A program made the translations under genes and the position numbers. Below, one piece after another: positions 12,249-64,000 of a stretch of 64,000 nt of DNA. Numbering within the stretch: position 1 is the stretch's first letter; each line of letters opens with the position of its first letter. The notes beneath the pieces are model-generated. The model did no database searches, was not told where the DNA came from, and saw only the letters and a program-made list of their open reading frames with translations. The DNA is from Candidatus Latescibacterota bacterium (GTDB taxonomy: Bacteria > Latescibacterota > UBA2968): NCBI GenBank assembly GCA_965208125.1, contig OZ242320.1:3040001-3104000 (forward strand), written 5' to 3'.

Positions 12249-12254
12249 GAGGGC

Positions 12255-13214
12255 CTACGTTGCTCTTATTAGCCGATATAAATTGGGGATTGTCTCCCGG
12301 TGGTCGCCCTGAATATAATAGCTTTCGCCGCCGTCTCGTACCGTGCGAACGAGGATGGTTTTGAAGGGGCGGTAGTAGTAGCGGGGGTCGGTTTTGGGGG
12401 CTTCGGTGTCGAGGTCGTCGCCGAGGGGGATGAGGTCGAAGACTGCCGTGGTAAATCTGGCGATGTTGCGACCTTCCTGGCGGGCGACATTGCGGGCCAT
12501 GGCGAGGGCTTTGAGATAGACTTCAGGCCCCATGATGGCCGTGCCGATGTTGAGCAGGACGCCGCCTTCGAGGTGGGAGATGGATTCTGTGAAAATTAAG
12601 AAGTCGGTGTAGGTGCTTGCGCCAATCGCTGCACCGTCGCAGTTGGGGTGTTCGTGCACAATGTCATAACCGATGCTGACGTGTGTGGTGATGGGGATGT
12701 TGAGTCGGACAGCAGCGGCAAAAATGCTGATGTCTTTGTGTGGGTAATTGCTTTCGAGGATGTTGCGCCCAACGGCTTCGCCCAGTCCAATGCCTTTTTG
12801 CGCCGCTGTTTGGGCAATGAGGTTGAGGTCGCCGGTTTCGGTCCACAGTCCAAATTCTCCGGTGCGGATATATCTGCCCACGCTTTCGGTGGTCGCGCCG
12901 ATGCGGGCAAGTTCGTAGTCGTGGATGGCACAGGCTCCATTGCCCGCAATATGGGTGATGAGGCCGCGTTCCATCATGTCGATGAGATAGCGCGCGGCGC
13001 CAGCGCGAATGACGTGTGCGCCAATCATGAAAATGATCGCGCAATTGTTTTGTCTGGCGCGTATAATGCGATCTGCGACAATGGGAAGGTTGGGGTTGTG
13101 AAAAGGGGGTATTGGCGCGTTGAGGTCGGGAATTTGATCGACGGAGAGGTCGTGTTTCCGCTGGTTGAGAGGGCGGAGTTTGAGTTTGGAGCGGTCGAAG
13201 GTTTTGTAGGGCAT
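12255..13214 (-). CDS. Conserved protein of deoxyhypusine-synthase-like fold (GSU2086-like)
   Basis: Motifs IGAHVI, NGACAIHDYE and GTAIMGPEVYLKAL. Confidence 0.6.
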   Translation of the reverse strand: MPYKTFDRSKLKLRPLNQRKHDLSVDQIPDLNAPIPPFHNPNLPIVADRIIRARQNNCAIIFMIGAHVIRAGAARYLIDMMERGLITHIAGNGACAIHDYELARIGATTESVGRYIRTGEFGLWTETGDLNLIAQTAAQKGIGLGEAVGRNILESNYPHKDISIFAAAVRLNIPITTHVSIGYDIVHEHPNCDGAAIGASTYTDFLIFTESISHLEGGVLLNIGTAIMGPEVYLKALAMARNVARQEGRNIARFTTAVFDLIPLGDDLDTEAPKTDPRYYYRPFKTILVRTVRDGGESYYIQGDHRETIPNLYRLIRAT

Positions 13215-48816: not shown

Positions 48817-48836
48817 AGATATCGGTGTACGATATT

Positions 48837-48930
48837 GTAGGGGCGGTGCCCCCGTGCCCGCCCGCTTGGTGGCAGGGTGGGGTTCGTCTATTCGTTGATT
48901 CGTTGATTCGCTGATTCGTCTATTCGTTTG
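48837..48930. repeat. GTAG-type REP hairpin followed by six tandem 8-mers
   Basis: GTAGGGGCGGTGCCCCCGTGCCCGCCC at 48837-48863; (TTCGTTGA-like) x6 at 48883-48930. Confidence 0.65.
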
Positions 48931-48934
48931 CGAG

Positions 48935-50350
48935 GTGCATTTGTCTAAGGCACAGGTTGCATCCGGGGAGGCAGAACCGCTGTCTCCTCGGGCGGCTCGG
49001 CGCGTGTTGATTAGCCTGATGTTTTCGTCTATGCTGATGCCTATGGTGGCTGGCATGTCGCGGGTTGCACTGCCGGTTATTCGGGATGATTTTGGGATTC
49101 CAGCAGATTTGACGGCGTGGGTTCTGGCAGCTTTTATGCTGCCTTTTGTCGTTTTGATGCCGATTTATGGGCGTTTGAGCGATGGCGTTGACCGGCGGTT
49201 GTTGATTCTGCTGGGGACTGTGATTTTTGGCGTTGGTTCTGCGATGACATTTCTGGCACCGAATATGCGCTGGTTGATGGCTGGCAGAGCGATTCAGGGT
49301 ATTGGCGTGGGGGGGATGACGCCGATGGGTATGGCGTTGCTTGTGTCGATTTTTAGTGCGGGAGAGCGCGGGCGCGTCCTGGGTACGTGGAGTGCGGTGG
49401 GACCGGCGATGAGTTTTTCGTCGTCGTTTGTCGCGGGTCTTCTCATTGCGCTTTGGGGGTGGCGCGCCGCTTTTGTGCCGGGGCTTTTGCTCAGTGTTGT
49501 GACTTTTGTCGCGATTTACAGGGGGGTGCCTTCTCAGGTGATTGGGGAGGCATCTAAATTTTTGCGGCAGTTTGATTGGGGCGGGGTCGGGCTGTTGTCG
49601 GGTGGGATTGTGTTTTTGATGTTTTATCTGTCCAGTCGGTCTGTGACGGGGGTTGCCCCGTTTGAGGATTGGCGATTGCTTTTGGGCGCGGGAGTGTTTT
49701 TCGCGGGTTTCTGGTGGTGGGAAAGAGGGCGGAGAGATCCTTTTCTTCCGCTCAATTTTTTTGGCAATCGCATGTTTTGCCGGGTGACGTTTTGCGCTTC
49801 GATGCGGATGTTTGTGCAGGGCGGTATTGGGGTGTTGATGCCGCTGTATCTGGTCGATGTTCACCGCATGGGGCCGGCACTGTTGGGCGTGTTTTTGATT
49901 ATTAGTTCTGCGGCGATGACGCTGATTGTGCGGTTTGGCGGGCAGATGTCCGATCGTTTTCAGAGTCGGTGGCTGGTGATGATTGGGATGTTTGTGCAGT
50001 TGACGGTGATGCTGGGCTTTGCCCATTTGTCCGATTCGATTTCGACATGGGTTATTGCTGGCCTACTGGCGTACTACGGGCTTGGGGCGGGGTTGATGCT
50101 GGCTGCATTGCACAGTACGGTTATGGGGACTGTCGATTCAGACCAGATGGGTGCTGCTGCAGGGCTTTATAGTATGTTGCGGTTTATGGGTATGGCGATC
50201 AGTACAGCACTGGTCGGGGTGGTGTTGCAGTTTTTCTTCGATGCAAATCTGGCTACACTCGACGCGTACCAGAAGGTGTTTATGGTGCTTGCGATATTTC
50301 CCGTTCTGGGGATGATGGTGGGGTTTGGGTTGCGAGAAAATAGGGGATGA
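48935..50350 (+). CDS. MFS transporter (DHA2-like)
   Basis: GRLSD..DRR, GRAIQGIG, ERGRVLG; about 14 TM helices. Confidence 0.9.
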   Translation: MHLSKAQVASGEAEPLSPRAARRVLISLMFSSMLMPMVAGMSRVALPVIRDDFGIPADLTAWVLAAFMLPFVVLMPIYGRLSDGVDRRLLILLGTVIFGVGSAMTFLAPNMRWLMAGRAIQGIGVGGMTPMGMALLVSIFSAGERGRVLGTWSAVGPAMSFSSSFVAGLLIALWGWRAAFVPGLLLSVVTFVAIYRGVPSQVIGEASKFLRQFDWGGVGLLSGGIVFLMFYLSSRSVTGVAPFEDWRLLLGAGVFFAGFWWWERGRRDPFLPLNFFGNRMFCRVTFCASMRMFVQGGIGVLMPLYLVDVHRMGPALLGVFLIISSAAMTLIVRFGGQMSDRFQSRWLVMIGMFVQLTVMLGFAHLSDSISTWVIAGLLAYYGLGAGLMLAALHSTVMGTVDSDQMGAAAGLYSMLRFMGMAISTALVGVVLQFFFDANLATLDAYQKVFMVLAIFPVLGMMVGFGLRENRG

Positions 50351-50475
50351 AATACGTCAATCATCACTCAATAGCCAAGGTTATATACGATAGTTAAAGA
50401 CTTGACGCTGTAGATAAAAAAAAGCCTCCAATTAAAAGGGGGTTATGTAGGATAGTGACCGGGCATATAGAGGCT

Positions 50476-51129
50476 TTACTGCCATTCTGGTGGTTTACGA
50501 AAAGTACCATTCGCATCAGTCAGTGTACCAGGAAGTTGACTGCGCTTAAGAATGCTGGGTCTAATTTCGCCTATAAACGTGGCGTATCTTTGAAGGTCTC
50601 TTGATTTTCTAATTATCTTTCGTGTGCCTGTATGTGGATCAATTGCACCAGTAGGAAATGCGACACCTACCTTCAGGTTTAGGTCTTGGGTCACAATTCG
50701 TAAGGCTTCTGATAAATCAGAATCATTTGATACAACAATAGCAACATCATAATCCTTTTTGTAAGCATCGTTTAACAGATGAACAGCCAAATTGACATCT
50801 GAACTTTTTTCTTCGGTTCTCAAAACTTCCACAGTGTTATGTGGTGGTGATGCTAATGGTAGTCTAACTTTGCGGGTCTGAAATCTTCCTTCAATAATTT
50901 CAATTTGTGAAAAAGTCCTTAAAGCCCGCAAATATATTTGTTGACGTACTGGTTTTCCCATGTCATCAGGGCGCGATTGTACAACCGAAGTGAAATACTT
51001 AATTTTATGAATCGTGTTTTGCGGGTATCTTTTTTGAACTAATTTAACTATATCCAACCACTTATAAGGCGTACCCTGAACGGCTCTATAATATAAATTA
51101 AGCCCATCAATATAGATATTTGTTTTCAT
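50476..51129 (-). CDS. NYN-domain (PIN-fold, LabA/DUF88-like) nuclease
   Basis: Acidic catalytic motifs YIDGLNLYY, EEKSSDV and VSNDSDL. Confidence 0.88.
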   Translation of the reverse strand: MKTNIYIDGLNLYYRAVQGTPYKWLDIVKLVQKRYPQNTIHKIKYFTSVVQSRPDDMGKPVRQQIYLRALRTFSQIEIIEGRFQTRKVRLPLASPPHNTVEVLRTEEKSSDVNLAVHLLNDAYKKDYDVAIVVSNDSDLSEALRIVTQDLNLKVGVAFPTGAIDPHTGTRKIIRKSRDLQRYATFIGEIRPSILKRSQLPGTLTDANGTFRKPPEWQ

Positions 51130-51148
51130 TAAATCCCCTAAAAATACA

Positions 51149-51247
51149 GGAGCCGTATAAAGATTCTATACGGCTCCGTGCCCTGCTCCCGAAGCAACAG
51201 GGGTGGTTAATTATTTGTATTATACAAAAGTAATAGCATAATATCAA
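51149..51247 (-). promoter_or_regulatory. Sigma70 promoter and two-hairpin leader of the NYN gene
   Basis: TTGATA-17-TATAAT (51247-51219); hairpins at 51181-51202 and 51149-51177 (11-bp perfect stem). Confidence 0.7.
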
Positions 51248-51286
51248 GTTTTTTTGGTCACTATTCTACATAATCCCCTGTGGGAC

Positions 51287-52611
51287 GGTCAAGTCCGAAA
51301 AGTTCTGTAAAATTGTAGCTTCGTGATATAGGGGTCAGAGCGTTTATTTCCAATCCGTCATGTCCAGGTAGCGTCTGCCGGTGATCCACTCGTCAGACCA
51401 CTCCATACACAACGCGCCGATGAGACGTTCACAAGCCTTTTGATTGGGGAAGATCTGCACCACATCGGCACGTCTTTTGATCTCACGATTGAGTCTCTCC
51501 AACAGGTTGGTGGTACGAATGCGTCTTTGATGCTTTTGGGGAAAGTGGAAGCAGGCCAGACAATGGATAATATCCCGGTCTATTTTGTCCACTATATTGG
51601 GCAGTATCTCTTCATAGGTGTCCATCATAGAAGATAGGCGGTCTTGTGCAGTGGCAAGATCGGGGGCATTGAAAACGTCTTTGAGTGCCTGTGCGACTTC
51701 GCGTTGATGCTTCGGCGGTGTGATACCTTTGATATTTCGGTGAAAGTGTGTCTGACAATGCTGCCAAGCGGCCCCCTGAAAGTGTCGTTTGATGGCGTTT
51801 TGTAAGCCTTCGTGGTGGTCAGAGATGACGAGATGCACACCCTTTAACCCACGCTTTTTAAGGTCTTTAAACAAGTCCGCATACGTGGCTTCTGTCTCAG
51901 TGTGCGCCACGTCAATGGCCAAAATGTCTCGGTGCCCACTCCCTGCGATCCCAGAAACGATTAAGACGCCTTCACAGGCGACCTGCCCCAAAGATCGGAT
52001 GTGGAGATAGGTCGCATCAATGATCAGATAGGGATACGCCTGTTCGAGAGGTCGCCCCCGCCAGGCGTTGATGTCTGCATCCAGGTCTTGACAAAGCTGT
52101 GAGATGTGAGACTTTGAGACGCTGGTCCCACATAAGGCTTCTGTGATCTTTGTCACCCTACGTGTGGAGACCCCTTGCAAATACGCCTCTTGAAGGGCAA
52201 GAATGAGGGCTTTTTCACTGCATTGAAAGCGTGAGAATAACTCACTGCAAAATCGCCCTTCCCGATCTTGAGGCACGCTTAGCTCGATACGGCCTACGCG
52301 CGTCTTGAGTATCCGCGGCTTATATCCGTTACGGTAGCCCGTACGAGTGGTCGTTCTTTGATAGGGTTCGGCTTGTAAAAACGACGTGATCTCGGCTTCG
52401 AGGAACTGTTGCAGGAAGCGAGTCACGGCCTGATTGAGAAAATCAGGAGCATTCAAAAGTGCAAATTGCTCTCTTTGAGAAATTTTAATATCTTTGGGGT
52501 GAGTCATCGTAGCCTCCAAGTTAGGGTTTATATTTCGTTCACCCCTATTTTAAGATTTTTCTCGGAGCTACGGTGACTTTTTACTTCTTACAGAAATTTA
52601 AGGACGCTATC
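51287..52611 (-). mobile_element. Complete IS256-family element
   Basis: Imperfect IRs ending TTCTGTAA; 8-bp target duplication TGTGGGAC at 51279-51286 and 52612-52619. Confidence 0.92.
51344..52519 (-). CDS. IS256 (mutator-type) transposase
   Basis: RNGYK.R, IDATY, SDHHEGL, CQTH, TTNLLER.NREIKRR. Confidence 0.95.
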   Translation of the reverse strand: MEATMTHPKDIKISQREQFALLNAPDFLNQAVTRFLQQFLEAEITSFLQAEPYQRTTTRTGYRNGYKPRILKTRVGRIELSVPQDREGRFCSELFSRFQCSEKALILALQEAYLQGVSTRRVTKITEALCGTSVSKSHISQLCQDLDADINAWRGRPLEQAYPYLIIDATYLHIRSLGQVACEGVLIVSGIAGSGHRDILAIDVAHTETEATYADLFKDLKKRGLKGVHLVISDHHEGLQNAIKRHFQGAAWQHCQTHFHRNIKGITPPKHQREVAQALKDVFNAPDLATAQDRLSSMMDTYEEILPNIVDKIDRDIIHCLACFHFPQKHQRRIRTTNLLERLNREIKRRADVVQIFPNQKACERLIGALCMEWSDEWITGRRYLDMTDWK

Positions 52612-52980
52612 TGTGGGACAGAGTATTTTGCTGGGTATGATAATAATATCGGCTTCTTTCAAAAGGCAATGCCAAAGATTCTAAACAAGATGATTGCCGC
52701 GCTTGGCGACAACCACGACGAGACAATCTTTCTTCTCGGATCAGATTATGAACAATGGAGCGTCTTGCGTTGTGGTAGCATCCGTCCAACATCCGGAGAG
52801 CCGGGAAAGGCAGACCGAATTGGTATAGACTTGCACAAGGATGGCAGTGACTACCGTAAGGGAAAGGGAAAGGCACTGATTGTCGAAGACCTTGCGGCCT
52901 ATCTTGCTCAGACCATTCACAGAGGCGATTTTTCAGTCTTTGAAAGGCAGATGCCCTTTCTATTCAATACACAATTTTAA
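52612..52980 (+). pseudogene. 3' part of an unknown gene; 5' part lost at the IS/cassette junction
   Basis: Open frame of about 120 codons whose called start lies inside the IS; followed by a terminator-like stem at 53026-53088. Confidence 0.45.
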
Positions 52981-53170
52981 GGAAAAAAGAAGGAGGGCCT
53001 ATGACTATGTGAAGCGTAGAAACGGAAAGCCCCAATTAAGTTTTTCATGAGGGAGAAACACGGTTTGTTGGGGCTTTCTGTTTTTTTATGCTCAACAGAA
53101 AGCCACGCACGCAGTATATTGTGCGCTGATATGCAAGGTCTTGCCCCTTCAACGCAGAAAGGATCTGACA

Positions 53171-53989
53171 ATGACAATATATTACTTATTAACAAATAGA
53201 GCAATGCCCGGGCTTGTGAAAATTGGACAAACAAATAAAACCGTAAATCAAAGAATAAAAGCTCTCTACTCTACAGGTGTTCCAACCCCTTTTGTTTGCC
53301 AATATGCTGTTGAAGTACCTTCTAATAACAAAGAAAATTATGAAAAATTGATGCATGATGCCTTAGACACATTACGGTATAATCCCGATAGAGAGTTCTT
53401 TGAAATTCCTGTAGATGATGCTATTAGCCTAATGAAAATGATACCAGGCACCCCTTTGCCTTTTCCCTCAACCGAAACACGCCCTATTGCTTTTGGACTT
53501 GGGGAAGAAATTAGTCCTGATGATCTCCAAACAAAGAAACAACGGCCTCAATTTCGGTTTTCAATGATTGGATTAAAAGTGGGGGATCCTGTGGCTTATC
53601 GTGATGATATATCTGTAGTTGCTGTTGTTTGTGATGACAAAAATGTAATGTATAATGAAACAAAGATGAGTTTAAGCAAAGCTGCGAAAATAATTGGAGG
53701 CTCAGATGTCTCAGGTCCAAGGATGTGGAAATACCATGGAGAAATCTTAGATAACATACGCACAAGAATGGAGAAAGAGGCAGAAGATAGCGAAACACGG
53801 CGAATAAATATACACGGCGATGTTGGGATAAACGGGAAAACAGGCGAGAAATGCCAAAGTAATGGACTATATCAAGCTGAGTGCTGCCACCAAGAAAATA
53901 TAGCAATTAAACAGAATGATTTTTTTCCTCCTTGCAGTATAGGATATCACGGTGTTTCTTGGAGACAGACAGGGACTTATCAGCCTTAA
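53171..53989 (+). CDS. GIY-YIG/T5orf172 nuclease fused to a RAMA-like domain and a YjzC-like tail
   Basis: YLLTN.AMPGLVKIG.T...R...REFF; FRFSMIG...SGP..WKY.GE.L; TGEKC..NGLY...FPPC...W. Confidence 0.75.
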   Translation: MTIYYLLTNRAMPGLVKIGQTNKTVNQRIKALYSTGVPTPFVCQYAVEVPSNNKENYEKLMHDALDTLRYNPDREFFEIPVDDAISLMKMIPGTPLPFPSTETRPIAFGLGEEISPDDLQTKKQRPQFRFSMIGLKVGDPVAYRDDISVVAVVCDDKNVMYNETKMSLSKAAKIIGGSDVSGPRMWKYHGEILDNIRTRMEKEAEDSETRRINIHGDVGINGKTGEKCQSNGLYQAECCHQENIAIKQNDFFPPCSIGYHGVSWRQTGTYQP

Positions 53990-54109
53990 AACGCAGTATA
54001 TTCTATTCGAGTGTGTAGCAAGATGTGCAAGGTCTTGCTCCTTCCCTTTACGTGGCGACGAAGAGGCGGAGCCATCCGGGTGCTCTACGCGAAGAGAAGG
54101 AGCAAGAAA

Positions 54110-54478
54110 ATGGAAGTAGAAATCAAACATGTGCCTGAGGGCTCCGCGACCGAAACCAGAACCATTATGTTTGATGTTTTCGTCAAAGGCGTAACCACCC
54201 CAATCTCAGAGGCAGAAATCATATTGAGCGTTAGTAATATGGCGAGTGAACGTCCGAGGACTGTCACCATCTGCGACACTAACTTTGAAAATTCAGCAAT
54301 AGAAAGGGAGGACATTCAACTCAGAAACAAAACGCCCAAAAAACTGCAAGCATCTGGCTTTCTCGCAAGAGTTGAAATTCCCCGAGTAGGCATTGTGCGA
54401 GTTGAGAAAGTTACGTTGACAGGATCACCTGAATATCCAAAAATTGTTCTTTCATCAAACATGACTCTCCGCTATTGA
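54110..54478 (+). CDS. Hypothetical protein (122 aa)
   Basis: SD AAGGAG before the ATG at 54110; no recognisable motif. Confidence 0.55.
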   Translation: MEVEIKHVPEGSATETRTIMFDVFVKGVTTPISEAEIILSVSNMASERPRTVTICDTNFENSAIEREDIQLRNKTPKKLQASGFLARVEIPRVGIVRVEKVTLTGSPEYPKIVLSSNMTLRY

Positions 54479-54618
54479 TAATTTTGTTCAATTGAGGAAA
54501 GAATATCTTGGCCACACTCAGGGCAGACTTTGCTGGAACACCTATCTAAGTCTGCCAATTTCCTTTTTCTCGATCGTTCCCGAAATTTCTTTATTTTATC
54601 TCGGGTGTAAGTACCTTT

Positions 54619-54871
54619 TGGAGTTACCCCGTTTTGGTGGAGTATTTAGGGCTTGGGTTTCAAGCCTGTGATTGATGCAGTTTTGCGTAAGCTATCGGCG
54701 CATGGTAGGCGATGGTATTGAGTCCTTTTGGAGACGTTTTAAGACGGAAAACAAAACTTTGCTTGTGTGCCACAAGAAGTGGTGCAGGCAATTCTTATGA
54801 GAAATATCACGGCTAATCCTTAGCACAAATTAGCCTACAAATTGCTGGTTCAAATTTTGGGTCACAGATCC
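54619..54871. mobile_element. IS3-family remnants: two different IS ends enclosing an OrfB fragment
   Basis: 54619-54665 matches the reverse complement of 32001-32047 (42/47); internal IESFWRRFKTEN; right end identical to 29205-29229. Confidence 0.7.
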
Positions 54872-54973
54872 CTCGTCAACTAACTGGTTGTGCCATCTCA
54901 GCCAATCAGGGTGCAGTATTTCCCAATAAGTTGTCCTATGCACGCCAGAAACTAAATACATAAAATCCTCCTT

Positions 54974-55026
54974 AAAAAATTATCAAACTTGACAAAAAAT
55001 TATCAAGTTTAAAAAGAAATTGTCAA
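54974..55026. promoter_or_regulatory. Three 13-bp direct repeats at a 20-bp period (operator-like)
   Basis: AAAAAATTATCAA x2 plus AAGAAATTGTCAA. Confidence 0.55.
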
Positions 55027-55424
55027 ATTCACAAAATACAATACTTTATACAAAAAACACACTGGATTTGTCGTTAAACTGCAAGAAAAAAAGTGAGCGA
55101 ATTGGTCAAGAGAGATCTGCGGTTGGAAAAGCGGTTGTTTGTGGCCTGAATTCAGGTTCTGTAAGCCCTATGTTTATTGCATTGAGACAGAATTCGGAAT
55201 TCGGCAACATCATCCAAAACGGGTCAAGTCCACTTTTGCCCAAAGGTATTTATGGTGTTGTTTTCGATATTGCCCGTTCTGGGTATGATCGTTGGCTCTG
55301 GTTTGCAAGAAAATAGGGGGTGAAATAGTTTGCGTGAGTGGAGGATTTTGGTTGTCATTGTGGCCTGTTTTAGCCGCCACGCGTAGCACAACGCCAGTAA
55401 TCCAGTTGTAAAATATTAAAATAG

Positions 55425-55456
55425 AAAAGCCGAAGGTCTAAAAACCCTCGGCTTTT
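55425..55456. terminator. Terminator after dndE
   Basis: AAAAGCCGA(A)GG-loop-CC(C)TCGGCTTTT. Confidence 0.75.
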
Positions 55457-55482
55457 TGTTTTGATCTGATGCCTTCTAAAAA

Positions 55483-55848
55483 TCATTTCCGCGGTAAGAG
55501 TCGCTGTAGGTCACTTAAGTCCTTGCAATTTTGATAAAGTGTTAGAACCCCGCGATTAAGATGCGCTCGGAAATAGTCTTCTAAACCATTCTCAGTATCT
55601 AACCCGTCATTGAAACAGCGCTGTTTTAATAGAGCAACAAAGAGGCTGTCCCATTCACCTGTTAGTGTATATCGATTGAACTCCTGCCCATCTTCGGGAT
55701 AAACATCTGCGTTGGGCAGGCCACTCTCTCGAAGCGACAGGCAGAAACCGATCCGGCATAAGATATTTGGCGTTAATCCCGTTCTGCCTTTTAAATGTCT
55801 AAGCCGGTTGGAGGCTTCCAAGCAGAGCTTGATCTTGTTGAGTTTCAT
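55483..55848 (-). CDS. dndE: DNA sulfur modification protein DndE
   Basis: LKGRTGLTPNILCRIGFCLSL, EFNRYTL.GE, HL.RG. Confidence 0.93.
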   Translation of the reverse strand: MKLNKIKLCLEASNRLRHLKGRTGLTPNILCRIGFCLSLRESGLPNADVYPEDGQEFNRYTLTGEWDSLFVALLKQRCFNDGLDTENGLEDYFRAHLNRGVLTLYQNCKDLSDLQRLLPRK

Positions 55849-57871
55849 GATCGGACTCTCTGTGTTTCCAAAAATAACCTTCGGATGCTGCGGATGATTC
55901 AGTCTCGGGACTGTATTGCAAGTGGTATGCGTGAGAAATGAATGGATTCAGTGCTTTGATATACTTTTGATCAATTTCTGTGTCAGTGGAAAGAATGATA
56001 ACCTGGTGACTGGCTTTAGAAAAGTAGCACTCTATCAGGTTGTGGCGATGGTCACTGTCAAGTCGCCCGAGAGGTGTATCGATAATTACGGGTAGTGGGC
56101 GTCCTGATGTTTGTGCCAATGCCCAGAGCATGGATATGGCGTAGATTTGTTTTTCTCCCGCAGATAACTGCTTTTTGGGAATGGCTTGACCTTGACGGTC
56201 ATAAAGGGTTACAGAGAATGTTTTGGGATCAATTTCAATACGGCGTATCATATCGCTTTTGCGGCAAAGCAGGTCGAAACATTGAGCCACAGCATGCTCC
56301 AGTTTACGCACCTTTGTTTGTGCCAGTTGATCAAAGTATTCGCCCAGAACGCCCTGGACACCATTGATCAATTTGAGACGATGGTCCATGTCTTCTTCAA
56401 GGGATAGTTCATCCAGTGCTTTTTGATATTCTCGATTGGTCTCTTTAAGCTGGTATTCATGCTGGCGGATTTCTCTTTCAATGCGCTCTGATTTGGTATT
56501 GAGTGATCCCAGGGTCTGGTTTAGATCATTCATTTTTTTGATATGCGGAGCAATTGCATCATCATCGGGAATGCGCTGTAAGTTCGTTTCGACTTTTTCG
56601 AGTTCTGTCAATGCTTTTTCAAGTTGACGGGTCTTGGCAATTACAACGTCACGACTAACTGGCGCGCCGCTTTTGGCCCAATTAATCAATTGAGCACCTT
56701 CGTCCTGAGAAAAGTTGTGTAAAATTTTAATGGTTTCAAAGTCTTCAGGAGGTTGGAATGCCTCTATGATCATAGAACCAATTTGGTCTATCAGGTTCTC
56801 ATTGTCAGCAATTGGGGGTTTTAATATTCCGTTGTTGAGATTTTCTTTTATATCTTCCCAACGAGTCTGTGCAACATCCTCCACGATGTGCCATTTTTGG
56901 ACTTCATTCTCACCTTGAACTTGCTGCGTAAGTTGCTCACATAATTCGGGTACCAATGAAAAGGGGAATAGGCGTGAGCATTCTTCTCGAATGCGGCTTT
57001 TAAATTGTTCAATTTGTGTCTGCAAAGAAGCGTGTTGAGATTTAAATTCCTGCCGTCTTTGTGCGTATTTTCCACCCGCTACTGCAAATTCGGTTTCGGC
57101 TTCTTCAATTTTGGCTGTTACACGTTGCAAATGTGCTTCAATCTGTGCCCTGTCTTGCCTTAAGTCTGAGAGTTGTTCATCAAGCGCAAATTGTCTTTTT
57201 TCAATATCTTTTAAGTATTTTTCTGTTTTTCCGTCTTGTGCTTTCTTTTTTTGACGGTTTGAATAAGTAGTCAAATCAGATTTTAACTGTTCAATGATGT
57301 CCAGACTGAGCATTGATTTGACAGATTCCGCCAGGATAGTGCCACCCTCTTCTTCAGCGAGATTTTGAATTTTTTCACCATCAAAGAAAAAGAGCTGTGA
57401 AACACCTATAGGAACCAAATCATTCAGAAACTCTTGCACTTGTTCCGTCTCAAACAGTTCTTCTCCATTTTCTTCAAGCGTCAATTGTTCTTCTATCTCA
57501 TCTTTCATAGAGTCCAATTTTTTCCAGGCTCTTTTTACAGTATAAAGGTGCTGTTCTCCAAACTTGGCGTAGGAAAACACAAGCTGGATGCTTGTATTTT
57601 TTAACTTTACACCCCCACCGCCTCTGGGGCGATGTATGCGTCCTGAAATGTACTTGCAATAGTCTCGATTGCTCATTCGACGATCAAGCGCGTTTTTGCC
57701 ATAAAGACAAAGCAGGATGGCTTCGAGGAAGGTAGTTTTTCCAGCCCCGTTTTTGCCCCCAAAAAGAATAATCGGACTTGTCTTGCGATATTTGGTACGC
57801 GGTTCAAGATCAAAGTCATGTGAACCACAAAAAAGTCCAAAATTTTGGATGGATAGGGTTTTAAAAATCAT
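55799..57871 (-). CDS. dndD: DNA sulfur modification ATPase DndD
   Basis: GGKNGAGKTT, FFFDGEKI, LSAGEKQ, IDTPLGRLD, STDTEID. Confidence 0.95.
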   Translation of the reverse strand: MIFKTLSIQNFGLFCGSHDFDLEPRTKYRKTSPIILFGGKNGAGKTTFLEAILLCLYGKNALDRRMSNRDYCKYISGRIHRPRGGGGVKLKNTSIQLVFSYAKFGEQHLYTVKRAWKKLDSMKDEIEEQLTLEENGEELFETEQVQEFLNDLVPIGVSQLFFFDGEKIQNLAEEEGGTILAESVKSMLSLDIIEQLKSDLTTYSNRQKKKAQDGKTEKYLKDIEKRQFALDEQLSDLRQDRAQIEAHLQRVTAKIEEAETEFAVAGGKYAQRRQEFKSQHASLQTQIEQFKSRIREECSRLFPFSLVPELCEQLTQQVQGENEVQKWHIVEDVAQTRWEDIKENLNNGILKPPIADNENLIDQIGSMIIEAFQPPEDFETIKILHNFSQDEGAQLINWAKSGAPVSRDVVIAKTRQLEKALTELEKVETNLQRIPDDDAIAPHIKKMNDLNQTLGSLNTKSERIEREIRQHEYQLKETNREYQKALDELSLEEDMDHRLKLINGVQGVLGEYFDQLAQTKVRKLEHAVAQCFDLLCRKSDMIRRIEIDPKTFSVTLYDRQGQAIPKKQLSAGEKQIYAISMLWALAQTSGRPLPVIIDTPLGRLDSDHRHNLIECYFSKASHQVIILSTDTEIDQKYIKALNPFISHAYHLQYSPETESSAASEGYFWKHRESDHETQQDQALLGSLQPA

Positions 57872-59316
57872 CTTTGAACACTTGCCTTTCGAGATCGCCG
57901 CTTTAATTCCCGTTCAATAGCCTCTTCCTCATTTTGCCATTCCTCGGTGAGCACTGCTTCGAGCTCTTTAGAGATGTTTGAACGATAAGCCATCCCATTC
58001 ATGGAAAGTTCGACATCCAGTAGCTTCATAACAAGTTTGGGTGGAATATTTCGCTCCTCACAGATTTTCTCCAATATAGAACGATCCTGGGGAGTAAAAC
58101 TCCCGGTATCATCTTCGGCCCAGGTTAAGTCATCACCTATAACCTCCTGGTAGATCTTCGGTACACTGTCTTCCCAATCCTGTTCTTCCATCCGCCAGAT
58201 TCGTCTGATTTCCTGTAATTCTTCGGGATGAATGAGTGTGGCATTCGGATCAGGCCCATTTTCACGCACTGATTGTTGTGCTTGTAAAACCATGCGTAAA
58301 ATTTCTTGCCGAATTCTCAAAAAATAGGGGCCAGGAACTACTTTTTGTTCGTTGCTGCGATCCAGCATAATGCGTCCATTGCGACGTTTGTAGTCTCTGT
58401 ATTCTCGCTTCTTTTCCGGATCTTGAGTAGCTGCCAACCAGTCGCGTAATTCCAGTAGTGGCTCCATCCAGTATTCGCCATTATCAATCATTGACTCCAT
58501 TGCTTTGTCCTGGGTTACGACTGTACAGACCCAACAGCCAAAGCGACTGTTTCCACAGGAAGGCGTTGTGGTGTCAATAACAAGGGGACATTCACCTGCC
58601 TGGGAGTTCTTGTAGAGTGCAACGAGGTCTCGATTGTTATTGCCCCAGGGAGATTTCCACTGGAGCAAATAGGTCCAGACATCATTGGTTGTAAAGTTCT
58701 CAATTGGCGTGTACACGTAAGCGCGAGGCAGTGTTGAATGCCGCTTGAGGCGATTACCCGTAATTTTGTGCAAGCTCATAACCTGAGCACGCGTTGCACT
58801 TTCATCGCTACGCACGCCGAGTACCATAATGACTTCGCCGTATTCTGCAACTCGCTCTAAAATGAATCGATTGGCGGGATCAATTTTCATTCGCTCAGTA
58901 CACCAGCGAAATGTTGTGGTAGGTGCAGGATAGCCACGACCAATGAGGTTGGTCCAAAAGCTATCTTCCATCAACGGCATAACTTTTTCAGCCTGAAAAG
59001 GCATGCCCTGGATTTTGGCTGCTTCGTTAATTCGATTCAGTGTGTTGTCGATGTAATCCACGATAACAGGTGTTTCGACCAGTGTATCGGATGATATTAC
59101 AAAGATCATTTTTTCCCGTTTTTCGCGCGGTAGTTCAGAGATGGCATACCATATTGCTTGAAGGGCTGTGGTGGAATCCTTGCCGCCGCTGTAACCGATA
59201 ATCCAGGGACGGTCATCGGATAAGTAAAGGTCTCGGATTTCTTCGTATAGGTCTTTTAGACCTTCACCGCTTAGATTCGAGGCACCATTCAAATCCTGTT
59301 TTCTAATTTCTATCAT
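57868..59316 (-). CDS. dndC: Phosphorothioation sulfurtransferase DndC
   Basis: PW.IGYSGGKDS, RWCTERMKI, CGNSRFGCWVCT. Confidence 0.96.
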   Translation of the reverse strand: MIEIRKQDLNGASNLSGEGLKDLYEEIRDLYLSDDRPWIIGYSGGKDSTTALQAIWYAISELPREKREKMIFVISSDTLVETPVIVDYIDNTLNRINEAAKIQGMPFQAEKVMPLMEDSFWTNLIGRGYPAPTTTFRWCTERMKIDPANRFILERVAEYGEVIMVLGVRSDESATRAQVMSLHKITGNRLKRHSTLPRAYVYTPIENFTTNDVWTYLLQWKSPWGNNNRDLVALYKNSQAGECPLVIDTTTPSCGNSRFGCWVCTVVTQDKAMESMIDNGEYWMEPLLELRDWLAATQDPEKKREYRDYKRRNGRIMLDRSNEQKVVPGPYFLRIRQEILRMVLQAQQSVRENGPDPNATLIHPEELQEIRRIWRMEEQDWEDSVPKIYQEVIGDDLTWAEDDTGSFTPQDRSILEKICEERNIPPKLVMKLLDVELSMNGMAYRSNISKELEAVLTEEWQNEEEAIERELKRRSRKASVQR

Positions 59317-59321
59317 GGCGT

Positions 59322-60437
59322 TTACTTTCTGTTCCGATTTGGTTTTTCAAAGTTGGCTTCCAGAATAGCTTCCTCTTCATTTAGGGCAAGGCCAAGGCGT
59401 TTTTTCAGGACATTGGTCGTCAGCCTGATATTATCCTGAGACCGACGAATCTTGCCCAACTCCATCGCACGTCCTTCCCATAGTGCTTTATTACTGCGAG
59501 ACCAATTGACTCTTTTGAGCCGTTTTAATCGCGTTTTCCAGGCGTCCGGATAGTGTTTAAGCAAATCAGCACCTGCAATGCCCATGGCTTTGAGCGCGAC
59601 ACCGTGAACGTGAAGATAATTCTCTCGAAGCGTAGCAGCAACAACATCTCCATCTGCTATCTGTTGCCATTCAGAAATGTGAGTGGTCATTTCCATCCAG
59701 AACTCATAGGCAATGACTTCGTCTGCTTCAAAAACAGAATCTTTTCTATTTTTACGCAGGAGCATTTGAGTGGCTTGATAGATATTGCTCAGGGTGAAAA
59801 TTTTAGTAGATCGATTTGAAATCGTCGTTTTTTCGAGTTCTGTCTGTCCGTCGAATACGGGAACACTTTGCACCAGATTACGCACCATCCCGGCCATTGG
59901 GTCGCGTTGGTCGTAGAGTATTCCGAGTGACCGCGTGGGACGCACGGCGTGCTTGTTCAGATCAGCGAACATCTGCTGGCTACGCTTCAAGCCAGCGTCG
60001 ATAAACAACACGACAGCAATGGTTTCGTATGCCAATTCGGGACATTCTTCCAACGCCAATTGAAGTGCCGCCCGCCGATGTTGACCATCGTTCACAATAA
60101 ACCTGGCTTCCATCGGCACAATGAGTGTACCGATCTTGCGATTGCCACCCCGTTCTGCGGCGGGTACAAACTCGATATCCCCATCAACAGAGGCCGTGAT
60201 CGCCGAAAAACAATAATTATCTTTGTTTTCGATGATGTACCGCGCAATTTCTGGCACCCGTGATCGATTCAAAACACGCTGGGCACGCATCTCTGCGGGC
60301 ACTTCGCTTTTTTCATCAAAACAAAAAAACCTCGTGATGTCCCTAAGAGAACACATAACGAGGTAATATTCGCGTTTTGCTTGAATACCACGAATCGCAG
60401 GAAAAGGGATTTTACCCTCTAAATCCGTTAAGTTCAT
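59322..60437 (-). CDS. dndB: DndB (DGQHR-domain regulator)
   Basis: RAQRVLN..R, NDGQHRRAA, SQQMFADLN. Confidence 0.94.
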   Translation of the reverse strand: MNLTDLEGKIPFPAIRGIQAKREYYLVMCSLRDITRFFCFDEKSEVPAEMRAQRVLNRSRVPEIARYIIENKDNYCFSAITASVDGDIEFVPAAERGGNRKIGTLIVPMEARFIVNDGQHRRAALQLALEECPELAYETIAVVLFIDAGLKRSQQMFADLNKHAVRPTRSLGILYDQRDPMAGMVRNLVQSVPVFDGQTELEKTTISNRSTKIFTLSNIYQATQMLLRKNRKDSVFEADEVIAYEFWMEMTTHISEWQQIADGDVVAATLRENYLHVHGVALKAMGIAGADLLKHYPDAWKTRLKRLKRVNWSRSNKALWEGRAMELGKIRRSQDNIRLTTNVLKKRLGLALNEEEAILEANFEKPNRNRK

Positions 60438-60452
60438 GATTTTCAGGGCCTC

Positions 60453-60530
60453 TTGGAAGTTTGTTTATTCCATTTGGAAGTTTGTTTTGCTGTTGTGCTA
60501 AAGTTTAACTCCTATCTCTATAAAAGTCAA
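60453..60530 (-). promoter_or_regulatory. dndB promoter with a downstream 14-bp direct repeat
   Basis: TTGACT-17-TAAACT (60530-60502); TTGGAAGTTTGTTT at 60453-60466 and 60474-60487. Confidence 0.65.
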
Positions 60531-60568
60531 TAACAAAGATCAGGATGGTGAACCCACCTTACAATTTC

Positions 60569-62266
60569 TTATTTAGAAGTAAGATCATCTAATTTTTTTT
60601 CTATTGTACTTGATTTGAAGGTATTCATTACTCGAGACAGGTCTTTATCACTGAGTCCCCTAACTATGGGTTTCAATTCCTGGATAGCTTGGTCATAAGA
60701 TGCCTCTAGTGAATCTGGGTCTTGCTCTATTTGATTAATAAAATTTTCCAACTTAGAAGGACCACAATTTTTCCAATTTCCTAATTCATAATACCCAACT
60801 AAACGTGCCACATGAAAGTGACCATATTTCGCAATAGCACTCTCAATTCCTGTAATTGATGCATCTTTTTGTAATTGCTTATTCATCTGATAACATTGTT
60901 GATATAATAGATACGCTGCCAATAATATTTCGACTTCAGAACTAAAAATATCTTCATAAAAATCTAACCAGATTTTAGACTTTTGAGCCATTGCGATGGC
61001 AGGTTTTTTTTCGACCACAGACAAATATGCTTGTCCAACCTTTTCATTTGAAATAACCTTCTGCTTTTCTTGTCTGCTTAAGTCCTTAAATTCTCTTGGT
61101 TTTTTCTCATAGTGGTAGTTTCGGTTCTTGAAGAGTGTACTTAAGGTCGATTGGAGGGTATCATTAGAACGTAGATCACGACTTGACACGGCATTTTGAT
61201 TATTAGTTGTAAGTGTAATTTTATCCACAATTTTTCGATCTTGAGTTTCATAGATTTTCACTAACAAAGAAACATCATCTTGTAATTTGCCTTCGTTAAG
61301 CGCCTCGACAAGTGTTAGTGAGGTTTGCCCTCCATTTACAATTTGGATACCATCGAGTTGTACACAAGGGACTGATTCTTGTATTTCAAAACTATCGCAG
61401 GTAATCGTTATTCCGTTATTGTAAAACCAAAAATATCCAGATTGGGTATCGTCTTGCGATGTCTTCAGGATTTCCTTATTTACCTTTCGATTAACGCCGA
61501 GAAAAGTTCTTACGTTTTCCTCAAAAATCACATCAATATGCTTTTTAACTAATTCAGCCAAATGTATCCCTTTAACTGTGCAAATAGCTGCTCTTACTCC
61601 TTTTGATTGGAAACGTATAACAGATTTATTATTGGCATCATATTCAATGGGTAGCTTTTTGTTTCTTATCTTATCTTTCTCTTTTTTATTTTTATTTTCT
61701 TCTTCAATAAGCTCGTTGGGTCCTAAAGTATAAAATTCAAATTCTTGAAATTCTTCATTTTTAAACTTACTTCTCGTATCTGCAACTTCCTTTTCGTAAT
61801 AGGCAGAAGGTTCTTCTATACTGTTAGCTACATAATAGACTTTTATATTTAAATTTTTTTTCCCAAAGGCTCTTTCTATCAAATCTCTTATATCTCCAAT
61901 TTTTAGGACTAAATCTTCATTTGTTAGTGTTTTGTACTTTTCTTCTGGATGTTTAAATATCCAATCAAGACCATCTCTCATTTGTACTATTATAGTACTT
62001 CTAAAACTGGAACTTTTTACTTGAACAAGATGTACAGTTGCTTGTCTATCATTTGCCTCTATATGAATGATATCAAACTGCCTGTCATCACTACCATCAA
62101 CTAAGTCGGCTTCGAAATCTGTATCATTAAATTCAGTATTAAATAAAACACTATATACATATCTCAAAAAAGCTACATCTTTTGTAATCTTCATTGATTT
62201 TTCGATCTCTGAAATTTGGTCATCAATGATCTGCTTTTTTTGTTTTAATTGCGCTTGATTATTCAT
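60569..62266 (-). CDS. AIPR-family protein
   Basis: FEENVRTFLG, FWFYNNGITI, QIVNGGQT, NNQN.V...DLRSND; markedly AT-rich. Confidence 0.9.
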   Translation of the reverse strand: MNNQAQLKQKKQIIDDQISEIEKSMKITKDVAFLRYVYSVLFNTEFNDTDFEADLVDGSDDRQFDIIHIEANDRQATVHLVQVKSSSFRSTIIVQMRDGLDWIFKHPEEKYKTLTNEDLVLKIGDIRDLIERAFGKKNLNIKVYYVANSIEEPSAYYEKEVADTRSKFKNEEFQEFEFYTLGPNELIEEENKNKKEKDKIRNKKLPIEYDANNKSVIRFQSKGVRAAICTVKGIHLAELVKKHIDVIFEENVRTFLGVNRKVNKEILKTSQDDTQSGYFWFYNNGITITCDSFEIQESVPCVQLDGIQIVNGGQTSLTLVEALNEGKLQDDVSLLVKIYETQDRKIVDKITLTTNNQNAVSSRDLRSNDTLQSTLSTLFKNRNYHYEKKPREFKDLSRQEKQKVISNEKVGQAYLSVVEKKPAIAMAQKSKIWLDFYEDIFSSEVEILLAAYLLYQQCYQMNKQLQKDASITGIESAIAKYGHFHVARLVGYYELGNWKNCGPSKLENFINQIEQDPDSLEASYDQAIQELKPIVRGLSDKDLSRVMNTFKSSTIEKKLDDLTSK

Positions 62267-62291
62267 TTTATTTCTCCAATTAAGAACAGGA

Positions 62292-62759
62292 CTATACGGA
62301 TAGTTCCCCTATAGCTTGATCCAATCTCATCTTATATATCGGCAAAAACACCTCTATTGTTCTTGGCCGATCATCAAACCATTCATTCGCCAGCACATCG
62401 TATCCGCCATACGAATAACGGTTGATCTCTCGCATGCCATCATCGCTAAGCCAAGATGGTTCCTGTGGATTAATAAGACGTGCAATCTGATCATGCACTT
62501 GACTCTTCTCCGACATGCTGACACCCATCTCCTCCAATTCTTTGCTCAGAAATAGTGCAATAATGACTCCTCTCTGAGACCGATATAGGCCAGGAAAATT
62601 ATTTACTAAATCTGTTGCTTCTCCAGTAGATATATTTTTTTTACGGCCCATAGCCAATCCGGCCATGAGACAAAAGTAGTAAGTATCGAAATCAAGCTCT
62701 AACTTGGGCCTTATGTCTCTAAACCACTTCCGAGCGTCTTCGCGCAACCTAAACGGCAT
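62292..62759 (-). CDS. Hypothetical protein, PbeD-like
   Basis: 155 aa, MPFRL...WF...FD.YYFCLMAGL; overlaps the upstream SMC-like ATPase; assignment rests on synteny and recalled similarity. Confidence 0.55.
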   Translation of the reverse strand: MPFRLREDARKWFRDIRPKLELDFDTYYFCLMAGLAMGRKKNISTGEATDLVNNFPGLYRSQRGVIIALFLSKELEEMGVSMSEKSQVHDQIARLINPQEPSWLSDDGMREINRYSYGGYDVLANEWFDDRPRTIEVFLPIYKMRLDQAIGELSV

Positions 62760-63999
62760 TTATAGGCTCCTCTTCAAGTTGGAATCCTTCAAAATACGTC
62801 TTGCCGTGTACACACCATCCGTCATCACTCTCTTCGGCGTGTTCACCATTTAAATTATCATCAGACTGCATATCTTTGCGAAACATCGTTATATATTGTA
62901 TATCACCATCAGCCGATGCTGCTTCAAGCGATGGTAAAAATCCTTCTCTTTCACTCGAAATCGTAAAGGCTATAAACTGATGAGAAAGTTTTGGCACTAA
63001 CTCTGCTACCTTGGCGCGTACTTTGAGATCAATTGGATTGGCCGGGCTATCTACAATAAACGGCAATTGATGCTCTGTCCTGTTAAACAGCGTTGCTAAG
63101 AAAGCATATCCAATAGATAAAGTCTCACCAACGCTGCCAGCTTCTTGGCCTCGTAGAACAAGCGATTGGGTAATTTTTTGAATGCGAATAGTATTTGATG
63201 GCATAAGTTCTTCAATGCGTTTATTAGCTTCCCGGCATAGATCAACACTAATTCCCTGCTTTGCCTTATTAAGTGCTCTCTCGATTATTTTGGTCATCAT
63301 ATCCCCCTTGGCTTTTAATTCCAATGTGTCCGTCGCCTTTGCCAATTGATGTTCTGCGTTCTTCAATCGGTCTTCCAATACCTGAATACCATAGGTATAT
63401 TGATCTCTTCGTGACGGATCAGGGTCCTCATACTTGCTCATATCATCCTTTAAGCTACGGCGTTCTTCCTCTAATTTGTTAATTTCTTGTTCGACTTTCT
63501 CCAGTTCAGGGTCATCGGCTACAGCTTTATTCTTTACGGCATCTCGCACTGTTTTCGCGTGTTCTTCTTTATCTCGAGCGTCATCAAGAACGGAGATTTT
63601 TTGTTTTAGTTCGGCTTCAGGTGAGTCTGCTTCAGGGCCCACGAAGTTTGCAACATCTCCCTTTAGCTGATTTAGTAGTGATACATCATCCGATCCCATA
63701 TACCGATCCGCCTGACCTTTTAGATGCGCACGTATGGCATCAGTAATGCATCGTCCACAAATACATTCTGCTTCGTCAGCTAATTCCTCAAAAAACTCTC
63801 GTGCTGCGCTTTCCGGTAACTTAGCTCGATCAAGGCTGTCTTTGAGAGTAATCATCCTTACAGCAAATGAAGATGACAAACTATGAGGATTTCGCATATC
63901 GATTAGGACATCGTGTGCTGCTGAAGCAACATGACGTTGTGCTTCTTTAAGGTTATCTTCTTCTTCTTGGAGTCGAGCCTTAATTTCTTTATGTTCAGT
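62749..63999 (-). CDS. Rad50/SMC-like ATPase, C-terminal part (PbeC-like); 5' end outside the window
   Basis: Frame stays open from 63897 to the edge; CICGR hook-like motif, coiled coil, SVGE signature-like motif, PFIVDSP Walker B. Confidence 0.75.
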   Translation of the reverse strand, partial: TEHKEIKARLQEEEDNLKEAQRHVASAAHDVLIDMRNPHSLSSSFAVRMITLKDSLDRAKLPESAAREFFEELADEAECICGRCITDAIRAHLKGQADRYMGSDDVSLLNQLKGDVANFVGPEADSPEAELKQKISVLDDARDKEEHAKTVRDAVKNKAVADDPELEKVEQEINKLEEERRSLKDDMSKYEDPDPSRRDQYTYGIQVLEDRLKNAEHQLAKATDTLELKAKGDMMTKIIERALNKAKQGISVDLCREANKRIEELMPSNTIRIQKITQSLVLRGQEAGSVGETLSIGYAFLATLFNRTEHQLPFIVDSPANPIDLKVRAKVAELVPKLSHQFIAFTISSEREGFLPSLEAASADGDIQYITMFRKDMQSDDNLNGEHAEESDDGWCVHGKTYFEGFQLEEEPINAV

Positions 64000-64000
64000 A

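Follow-up and report, generated by a model that had tools for sequence, protein, structure and literature searches.

A Dnd-Pbe phosphorothioation island with a predicted AIPR nuclease gene at its module junction in a Latescibacterota bacterium

Which partner genes accompany a bacterial dndBCDE cluster that has no dndFGH restriction genes beside it is the question raised by the end of the DNA stretch analysed here, 64,000 nucleotides (nt) of a Candidatus Latescibacterota genome (G000:C1:3040001–3104000, hereafter the window); the host genome is a single contig of 5.75 Mb and is 96% complete. Judged from its sequence, the locus is a complete Dnd-Pbe phosphorothioation (PT) defence island that was acquired horizontally and is of a kind already described, and its only unusual feature is a gene for a predicted AIPR nuclease, which recurs at the junction of the pbe and dnd modules. 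The array has the order pbeA-pbeB-pbeC-pbeD-AIPR-dndB-dndC-dndD-dndE, is entirely on the minus strand and occupies window coordinates 55483–66898, ending 2.9 kb beyond the window (Table 1). All nine open reading frames (ORFs) of the array are intact and the catalytic motifs are present (CxC, Walker A, HxK...GSxN and DEVH). The pbe genes overlap each other by 1–11 nt, pbeD is separated from the AIPR gene by 25 nt and the AIPR gene from dndB by 131 nt, while the dndB-dndC and dndC-dndD joins are gaps or overlaps of at most 5 nt. A preliminary description, made from the letters of the window, had listed seven co-oriented ORFs (a partial ATPase, a protein of 155 amino acids (aa), AIPR, dndB, dndC, dndD and dndE) followed by a terminator, and had predicted a pbeA gene for a PLD-helicase and a small pbeB gene just past 64 kb. 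The seven ORFs were all found, with profile scores far beyond chance, a hairpin with a T-rich tail lies after dndE, and the two predicted genes are located directly beyond the window. Taken over all its sites, the terminator scan showed no enrichment (12 found, 11.0 expected), and the promoter scan did not rise above its shuffled controls (28 sites versus 25.7).

The dnd genes form one operon, in which DndB, DndC, DndD and DndE each exceed the curated NCBI (NCBIfam) cut-off of their TIGR model. DndC carries SGGKDS at residue 43, and DndD a Walker A motif, GKNGAGKT, at residue 39 but no CxC motif. Residues 411–456 of DndC give weak matches to Pfam Sp-DndD (0.0026) and to PADLOC PbeB (0.00038), a hint that DndC may carry a fused small-protein module at this locus. 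The preliminary description had reported neither dndA nor dndFGH in the window, and this agrees with our searches. No dndA-like match is present in the window, and none above the cut-off of 480 for model TIGR03235 exists in the genome; the best genomic match to this model (428.7 bits, C1:943378) is 2.1 Mb from the locus and is probably a housekeeping cysteine desulfurase, to judge from its score. With no dndA above the cut-off, the sulfur would have to come from a housekeeping enzyme, and IscS is able to replace DndA. At least six related Pbe loci likewise have no Aminotran_5 gene among the ORFs scanned beside pbeD. Models of DndF, DndG and DndH (TIGR03238, TIGR03236 and TIGR03237) have no match in the one-contig genome, a result without positive control, the same searches having been silent in 14 control genomes as well.

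The genes upstream of the AIPR gene are Pbe-like, as the preliminary description had supposed, strongly so for PbeA, by the Sp-CxC family for PbeB, by a weak PADLOC match and a CICGRC motif for PbeC and by fold for PbeD. PbeA combines an HKD nuclease with an SF2 helicase; it matches Pfam ResIII (4.6e-22), Helicase_C (1.1e-11) and, weakly, PLDc_2 (7.7e-05), and contains HEK...GSANET at residue 164 and DEVH at residue 390. The gene for PbeB overlaps both of its neighbours, and its family is described in Pfam as 'small protein from certain CxC ATPase-based DNA modification systems'. In PbeC, the CICGRC motif (residues 322–327 of 659) is located mid-protein. PADLOC 2.0.0 covers this Pbe subtype poorly, as its best PbeC match is 1e-17 and PbeB and PbeD have none even at E up to 10, yet PbeA is matched at 1.2e-255; automated callers may thus report a bare dndBCDE set without restriction partner. 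Just upstream of pbeA, still inside the island, there is a further minus-strand ORF of 96 aa (window 66987–67277; 11987–12277 in the extracted locus L001), which has no Pfam or PADLOC match.

The 155-aa protein has no Pfam match and is assigned as PbeD on its predicted DndE-like fold, this fold being the definition used for PbeD in Krishnan 2024 (PMC10853773). There are 79 homologues, and a model made with AF2 from an alignment of 44 sequences has a mean predicted local distance difference test score (pLDDT) of 94.1. When this model was compared with 48,161 PDB chains, the top two were both DndE: 7x4e_A (Z 7.3, 103 residues aligned, root-mean-square deviation (rmsd) 3.0) and 5wtu_A (Z 5.9). 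These are the only chains that reach a Z of 5, and other ribbon-helix-helix proteins come next. In a Foldseek search of the PDB nothing was found at E≤0.001, DndE (4lrv_I) being at rank 39; profile comparison of PbeD with DndE (hhalign) was not significant, and a PDB sequence search with the PbeD and AIPR profiles gave no useful match. In the ESM Atlas, 16–22% of the members of the nearest clusters have a Pfam DNA_S_mod_dnd_assoc_4 assignment, which serves as a lead only.

The architecture of pbe and dnd genes has been described before, in two settings. Haloarchaeal DndCDEA-PbeABCD (Xiong 2019, PMC6459918) arranges its four pbe genes in the order found here, beside dnd genes and without dndFGH, and the sizes are nearly the same, with PbeB of 66 aa and PbeD of 152 aa in the archaea and of 65 and 155 aa here; our locus differs in being bacterial, in having dndB, in being without dndA and in the AIPR gene between pbeD and the dnd genes. 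This source also lists 235 bacterial pbeAC pairs and terms the pairing widespread among Bacteria. Krishnan 2024 equates PbeABCD with the CxC ABC-ATPase system, in which PbeA is the HKD and SF2 helicase protein, PbeC the CxC ATPase and PbeD the DndE cognate, and PbeB is small and disordered. According to this source, systems centred on DndD and on CxC occur in tandem in 936 bacterial taxa, and 52% of the taxa that have the modification system also have DndB. The architecture at our locus, with DndB, DndC, DndD and DndE alongside, is identical to this tandem. Thus the bacterial Dnd-Pbe variant with dndB proposed in the preliminary description was correct as to the pairing, but its implied novelty was overstated, since the pairing, dndB included, is already published and common; a bacterial Dnd-Pbe island with dndB is ordinary and not new. 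Diverse extra nucleases in these neighbourhoods (HKD, HNH, URI, HEPN, PIN and restriction endonuclease (REase) families such as NERD) are proposed in Krishnan 2024 to be restriction or suicide effectors, while 'AIPR' and 'AbiU' occur 0 times in its main text. In the AIPR and phosphorothioation literature covered, no mention was found of AIPR in a Pbe-Dnd locus; neither the supplement of Krishnan 2024 nor Krishnan 2020 is part of this coverage, and either may list it. As far as these literature searches reach, the AIPR-bearing form of Dnd-Pbe is new.

The AIPR protein, of 565 aa, matches the PADLOC AbiU profile from end to end (residues 10–561 on profile positions 2–532 of 537). Its AF2 model has a pLDDT of 88.8 and is predicted to contain an N-terminal PD-(D/E)xK nuclease domain of the FokI-like kind, a central ParB-like domain and a C-terminal helical domain. 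Residues 1–198 resemble the cleavage domains of FokI (Z 10.6, 157 residues aligned, rmsd 4.3), N.BspD6I (Z 8.7), MspJI (Z 8.0) and AspBHI (Z 7.7), and residues 221–369 the ParB-N domains of 5k5d_B (Z 6.1) and PadC (Z 5.3), values which are in the middling range by the tool's own scale. D65 and K84 are present without exception in the 72 relatives compared, while 59 of these also have Q82 and the others serine; the resulting D...QxK arrangement is one that we take to resemble MspJI-type enzymes. Foldseek returned nothing from the PDB at E≤0.001, with HamA, FokI and ParB as weak rows only, and profile comparison of AIPR with DndB was not significant. A complex prediction of AIPR with PbeD scored 0.00, the mark being 0.32; no call is made from it and it counts neither for nor against an interaction. 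The likeness to AbiU and Pfam AIPR proteins thus comprises a full-length profile match, a predicted FokI-like nuclease, a likeness also reported for lactococcal AbiUi (2026 FEMS Microbiol Rev review, PMC13064643), and linkage to DNA-modification systems, but the gene in our array is part of a PT-based Pbe-Dnd locus and stands neither alone nor in a methyl-based restriction-modification (R-M) operon. AIPR proteins have been given an N-terminal HEPN domain (Makarova 2012, PMC3506569); this assignment was rejected for our protein, as residues 1–198 model as a PD-(D/E)xK nuclease fold.

Where relatives of this protein occur is the evidence that links it to Pbe and Dnd. It has 611 homologues at E≤1e-10, and the three closest are 75–79% identical; two of these three share the lengths of their longest contigs (8191 and 10088) with PbeD homologues, a hint that they may be co-located with them. 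A scan of genome contigs with the single protein confirmed none of 150 pattern matches, and alignment queries were used instead. An alignment of 28 sequences, used as query against metagenomes, gave 348 relatives, from which 80 loci were kept. Only the six most similar loci (L044–L049, 44–54% identity) have Pbe or Dnd matches. All five of these six that have an upstream flank show the order PbeC, an ORF of 135–149 aa, then AIPR, with gaps of about 110 nt at most or an overlap. PbeC of L044 and L046–L048 has the CICGR motif and PADLOC PbeC values of 7e-200 to 3e-266, while L049 has a C-terminal PbeC fragment, which was left unscanned. L048 also contains a full PbeA (7e-240) and a small ORF, and in L046 a helicase gene is present by its end. 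Downstream of AIPR, convergent dndA and/or dndE-D-C-B genes are present in five of the six; the exception is L046, whose last 1 kb shows none. The window protein and those of L044–L049 are together on one side of a branch that has an SH-aLRT (Shimodaira-Hasegawa-like approximate likelihood ratio test) support of 99 in a maximum-likelihood tree of 72 AIPR proteins. PbeC of these loci is only 19–21% identical to PbeC of the window, so that one AIPR clade is found at the matching junction in two divergent Pbe lineages. The PbeD hidden Markov model had no match among the ORFs of the 80 loci. A separate observation concerns DndE: the window protein is 52–62% identical to DndE of the AIPR-bearing loci L044–L048 but only 34–44% identical to that of loci with the same type of Pbe module, apart from L022, and the locus may thus be a mosaic, with its Pbe module from one lineage and AIPR and Dnd from another.

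Loci of the window's own Pbe type were collected from public bacterial genomes, one per species, through relatives of PbeD, and their neighbouring genes were identified by tblastn. In the resulting 22 loci, PbeC is adjacent in 21, PbeA in 19 and Dnd genes in 21, the Dnd genes being co-directional in nine, convergent in three, divergent in eight and upstream and co-directional in one. The position 3' of pbeD, which at our locus holds the AIPR gene, has varied contents: an antisense dndA in several loci, a GmrSD-type gene in L023 (PADLOC 'Orf5', 1.6e-194), DpdB-like or DGQHR genes in L022, L039 and L043, a ParB_N gene in L026, Mrr-type nucleases in L026 and L028, and nothing in L030, L032 and L041.

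At the chromosomal site, the island can be compared with other genomes of the genus. In two of these (G007 and G003) the site is empty, with the left MFS gene (window up to 50376) abutting the right amidohydrolase gene (from 67346); in seven others the two flanks are separated by inserts that range from about 1.1 to 16.4 kb, and G012 has a Pbe-Dnd island at the site. On this comparison of sequences, the site is a variable chromosomal hotspot in the genus. The insert of our genome is about 17 kb long, low in G+C content (GC) and located at window 50377–67345 (MFS flank 48935–50350), with TCAATCATCAC(T/C)CA at both ends. No tRNA gene was found at the island ends and no integrase was seen. GC rises beyond pbeA, where the genes are housekeeping ones (amidohydrolase, M29 peptidase and TIM-barrel). 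Among 61 related genomes, PbeD relatives occur in two and AIPR relatives in 12, all but that of the window's own genome being at most 36% identical. Vertical inheritance of the island was rejected, as AIPR and PbeD are not conserved in these genomes. Self-comparison of window 49800–67800 revealed a copy of the 3' end of the MFS gene (50292–50354), which marks the join between a module of about 5 kb and the 12-kb Dnd-AIPR-Pbe module. The smaller module (50476–55316) contains genes for an NYN protein, a Mutator-family transposase and a T5orf172 protein, and three ORFs without family match, the last of which overlaps the MFS 3'-end remnant. About 90 nt of intergenic DNA just before the MFS gene (window 48836–48930) form an element with many dispersed copies (about 80–100% identity) in this and same-genus genomes and with short tandem arrays in G004 and G012; it looks like a repeat of the REP (repetitive extragenic palindromic) or MITE (miniature inverted-repeat transposable element) kind.

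Table 1. Coordinates of the island features, in window numbering (pbeB and pbeA are located beyond the window end at 64,000)
Feature	Position	Strand	Evidence or description
NYN protein, PADLOC HEC-09	50476-51129		2.9e-38; 5-kb module (50476-55316)
Mutator-family transposase	51344-52519		5-kb module
ORF without family match	52573-52980		
T5orf172 protein, PADLOC PDC-S57	53141-53989		2.2e-54; 5-kb module
ORF without family match	54011-54478		
ORF without family match	55020-55316		overlaps MFS 3'-end remnant
Copy of MFS gene 3' end	55265-55327	+	85.7% identical; self-blastn
Intrinsic-terminator-like hairpin	55425-55456	-	14-pair stem (6 G-C), 4-nt loop, T-rich tail; 27 nt past dndE stop
dndE, 121 aa	55483-55848	-	TIGR03184 92.7 bits (cut-off 71.85); Pfam DndE 2.9e-26; PADLOC DndE 1.3e-47
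dndD, 690 aa, ABC ATPase	55799-57871	-	TIGR03185 559 bits (cut-off 245.85); PADLOC DndD 4.5e-217
dndC, 482 aa, PAPS-reductase-type sulfurtransferase	57868-59316	-	TIGR03183 597 bits (cut-off 290.4); PADLOC DndC 1e-209
dndB, 371 aa, DGQHR protein, Dnd-module regulator	59322-60437	-	TIGR03233 467 bits (cut-off 328); Pfam DndB 4.8e-133
Swappable cassette interval between pbeD and dndB	60542-62279	.	blastn vs same-genus G012 contig C225 (L124)
AIPR/AbiU-family gene, 565 aa	60569-62266	-	Pfam AIPR (PF10592) 154.5 bits (cut-off 25), 6.7e-45; PADLOC AbiU 1.2e-68
pbeD, 155 aa, DndE-like partner of CxC ATPase	62292-62759	-	predicted structure
pbeC, 659 aa, CxC-clade ABC ATPase	62749-64728 (C-terminal 416 codons in window)	-	Pfam AAA_23 1.6e-08; PADLOC PbeC best 1e-17
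pbeB, 65 aa	64728-64925 (outside window)	-	Pfam Sp-CxC (PF20304) 49.2 bits (cut-off 27.5), 5.2e-13
pbeA, 658 aa, HKD nuclease and SF2 helicase	64922-66898 (outside window)	-	PADLOC PbeA 1.2e-255

A working scheme for the island can be drawn from the protein families. DndC, DndD and DndE, with a housekeeping cysteine desulfurase, would write PT into DNA, the DndD-DndE pair setting the motif and DndB tuning the writing. The CxC ATPase PbeC and the DndE-like PbeD would scan DNA, PbeA would act on unmarked DNA and the small PbeB would regulate. From the comparisons given above, AIPR would be an accessory nuclease effector added to the pbe module at its 3' end, and it may act as a second restriction nuclease or a backup suicide effector, of the kind proposed for Dnd-linked nucleases in Krishnan 2024.

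That the island does not work as a PT-dependent system, either because no PT is written, no housekeeping desulfurase standing in for DndA, or because the CxC/Pbe part acts independently of PT, would agree with the missing dndA, in the locus and above the cut-off in the genome, and with the literature, where Krishnan 2024 doubts the dependence of Pbe on Dnd, arguing that independence may be frequent, and where 320 of 553 pbeAC pairs are without nearby dnd genes (Xiong 2019). We regard it as very improbable, given that the nine ORFs are intact with their catalytic motifs, that a gene with a 428.7-bit desulfurase match exists elsewhere in the genome, that at least six related loci also lack an Aminotran_5 gene among the ORFs scanned beside pbeD and that Dnd genes stand beside 21 of 22 related Pbe modules. 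The role of AIPR is less settled, and we lean towards a functional tie to Pbe-Dnd. The alternative is that AIPR is an independent single-gene passenger, an abortive-infection gene of the AbiU type which occupies a recombination-prone slot between two modules without any tie to Pbe or Dnd; its end-to-end AbiU match favours this, as does the resistance that lactococcal AbiU (AbiUi) confers by itself (PMC13064643). Several further observations weigh on this side and against a tie. No AIPR relative was found in any of the 22 public loci of the window's Pbe type. In G012, homology to the window extends over 55473–60541 (dndE to dndB, 91.8%) and 62280–64185 (pbeD to pbeC, 80.3%) and skips 60542–62279, where an unrelated 574-aa ORF with an IDGQHR motif replaces the AIPR gene. 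The absence from 22 of 22 loci and the swapped slot imply that AIPR is dispensable for this type of Pbe module, and its interval has a GC of 0.33–0.39 versus 0.41–0.47 in the dnd genes, which fits a separate, more recent acquisition. No Pbe or Dnd matches were found in the other 74 of the 80 AIPR loci, many of which have flanks so short that a Pbe neighbour could be missed, and distant AIPR proteins have varied contexts: inside type I R-M operons (L072, L090, L091, L108 and L112), beside methylases (L113 and L121), or next to other defence genes (including TIR and HNH) or unrelated ones. The slot elsewhere holds GmrSD-, Mrr- or DGQHR-type genes, dndA or nothing. The small ORFs of L044–L049 show no significant profile similarity to PbeD or to DndE, and the AIPR tree comes from a quick, unfinished search, from which 9 of 81 rows with ORFs of less than 500 aa were dropped.

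Against a passenger speaks the clade itself: all seven of its members are in Pbe and/or Dnd loci, in two Pbe lineages, and directly 3' of a pbeD-sized gene wherever the flank exists, an exact position that is not expected to be kept by a chance passenger. The R-M contexts of the distant relatives agree with the frequent association of AIPR with R-M systems in Makarova 2012, and that linkage suggests a general dependence on modification systems. On balance, a passenger is somewhat unlikely. The proposal in the preliminary description that AIPR is an extra component of the system is accordingly tentative: the clade of the protein is tied to Pbe-Dnd loci, but all 22 related bacterial loci are without it.

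The tie between AIPR and Pbe-Dnd could also be of a more general form, which we put forward as a speculation and consider unlikely. The slot 3' of pbeD would then be a dedicated socket for interchangeable effectors of the ParB/DGQHR type (AIPR, DGQHR/DpdB-like, GmrSD/SspE-like and ParB_N), and the AIPR clade would be a true fifth Pbe subunit; its ParB-like domain would sense either the PT state or a signal from Pbe, and the cutting that archaeal PbeABCD is reportedly without would come from its FokI-like domain. SspABCD-SspE, in which a PT-writing module is joined by an effector that couples a ParB/DUF262-type domain to a nuclease, serves as a working analogy only: no sequence relation between AIPR and SspE is claimed, and PT sensing by AIPR would be by analogy. 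The GmrSD-type protein of L023, in the slot that matches that of AIPR, also scores on PADLOC SspE models.

The antiviral mode of Pbe (CxC) is contested, as no DNA cleavage by archaeal PbeABCD was seen in Xiong 2019, while according to Krishnan 2024 the action of nucleases is required. The AIPR clade, with a position kept in two Pbe lineages and swapped for ParB-type or nuclease genes in close relatives, is a concrete candidate for the cutting or suicide step of Pbe.

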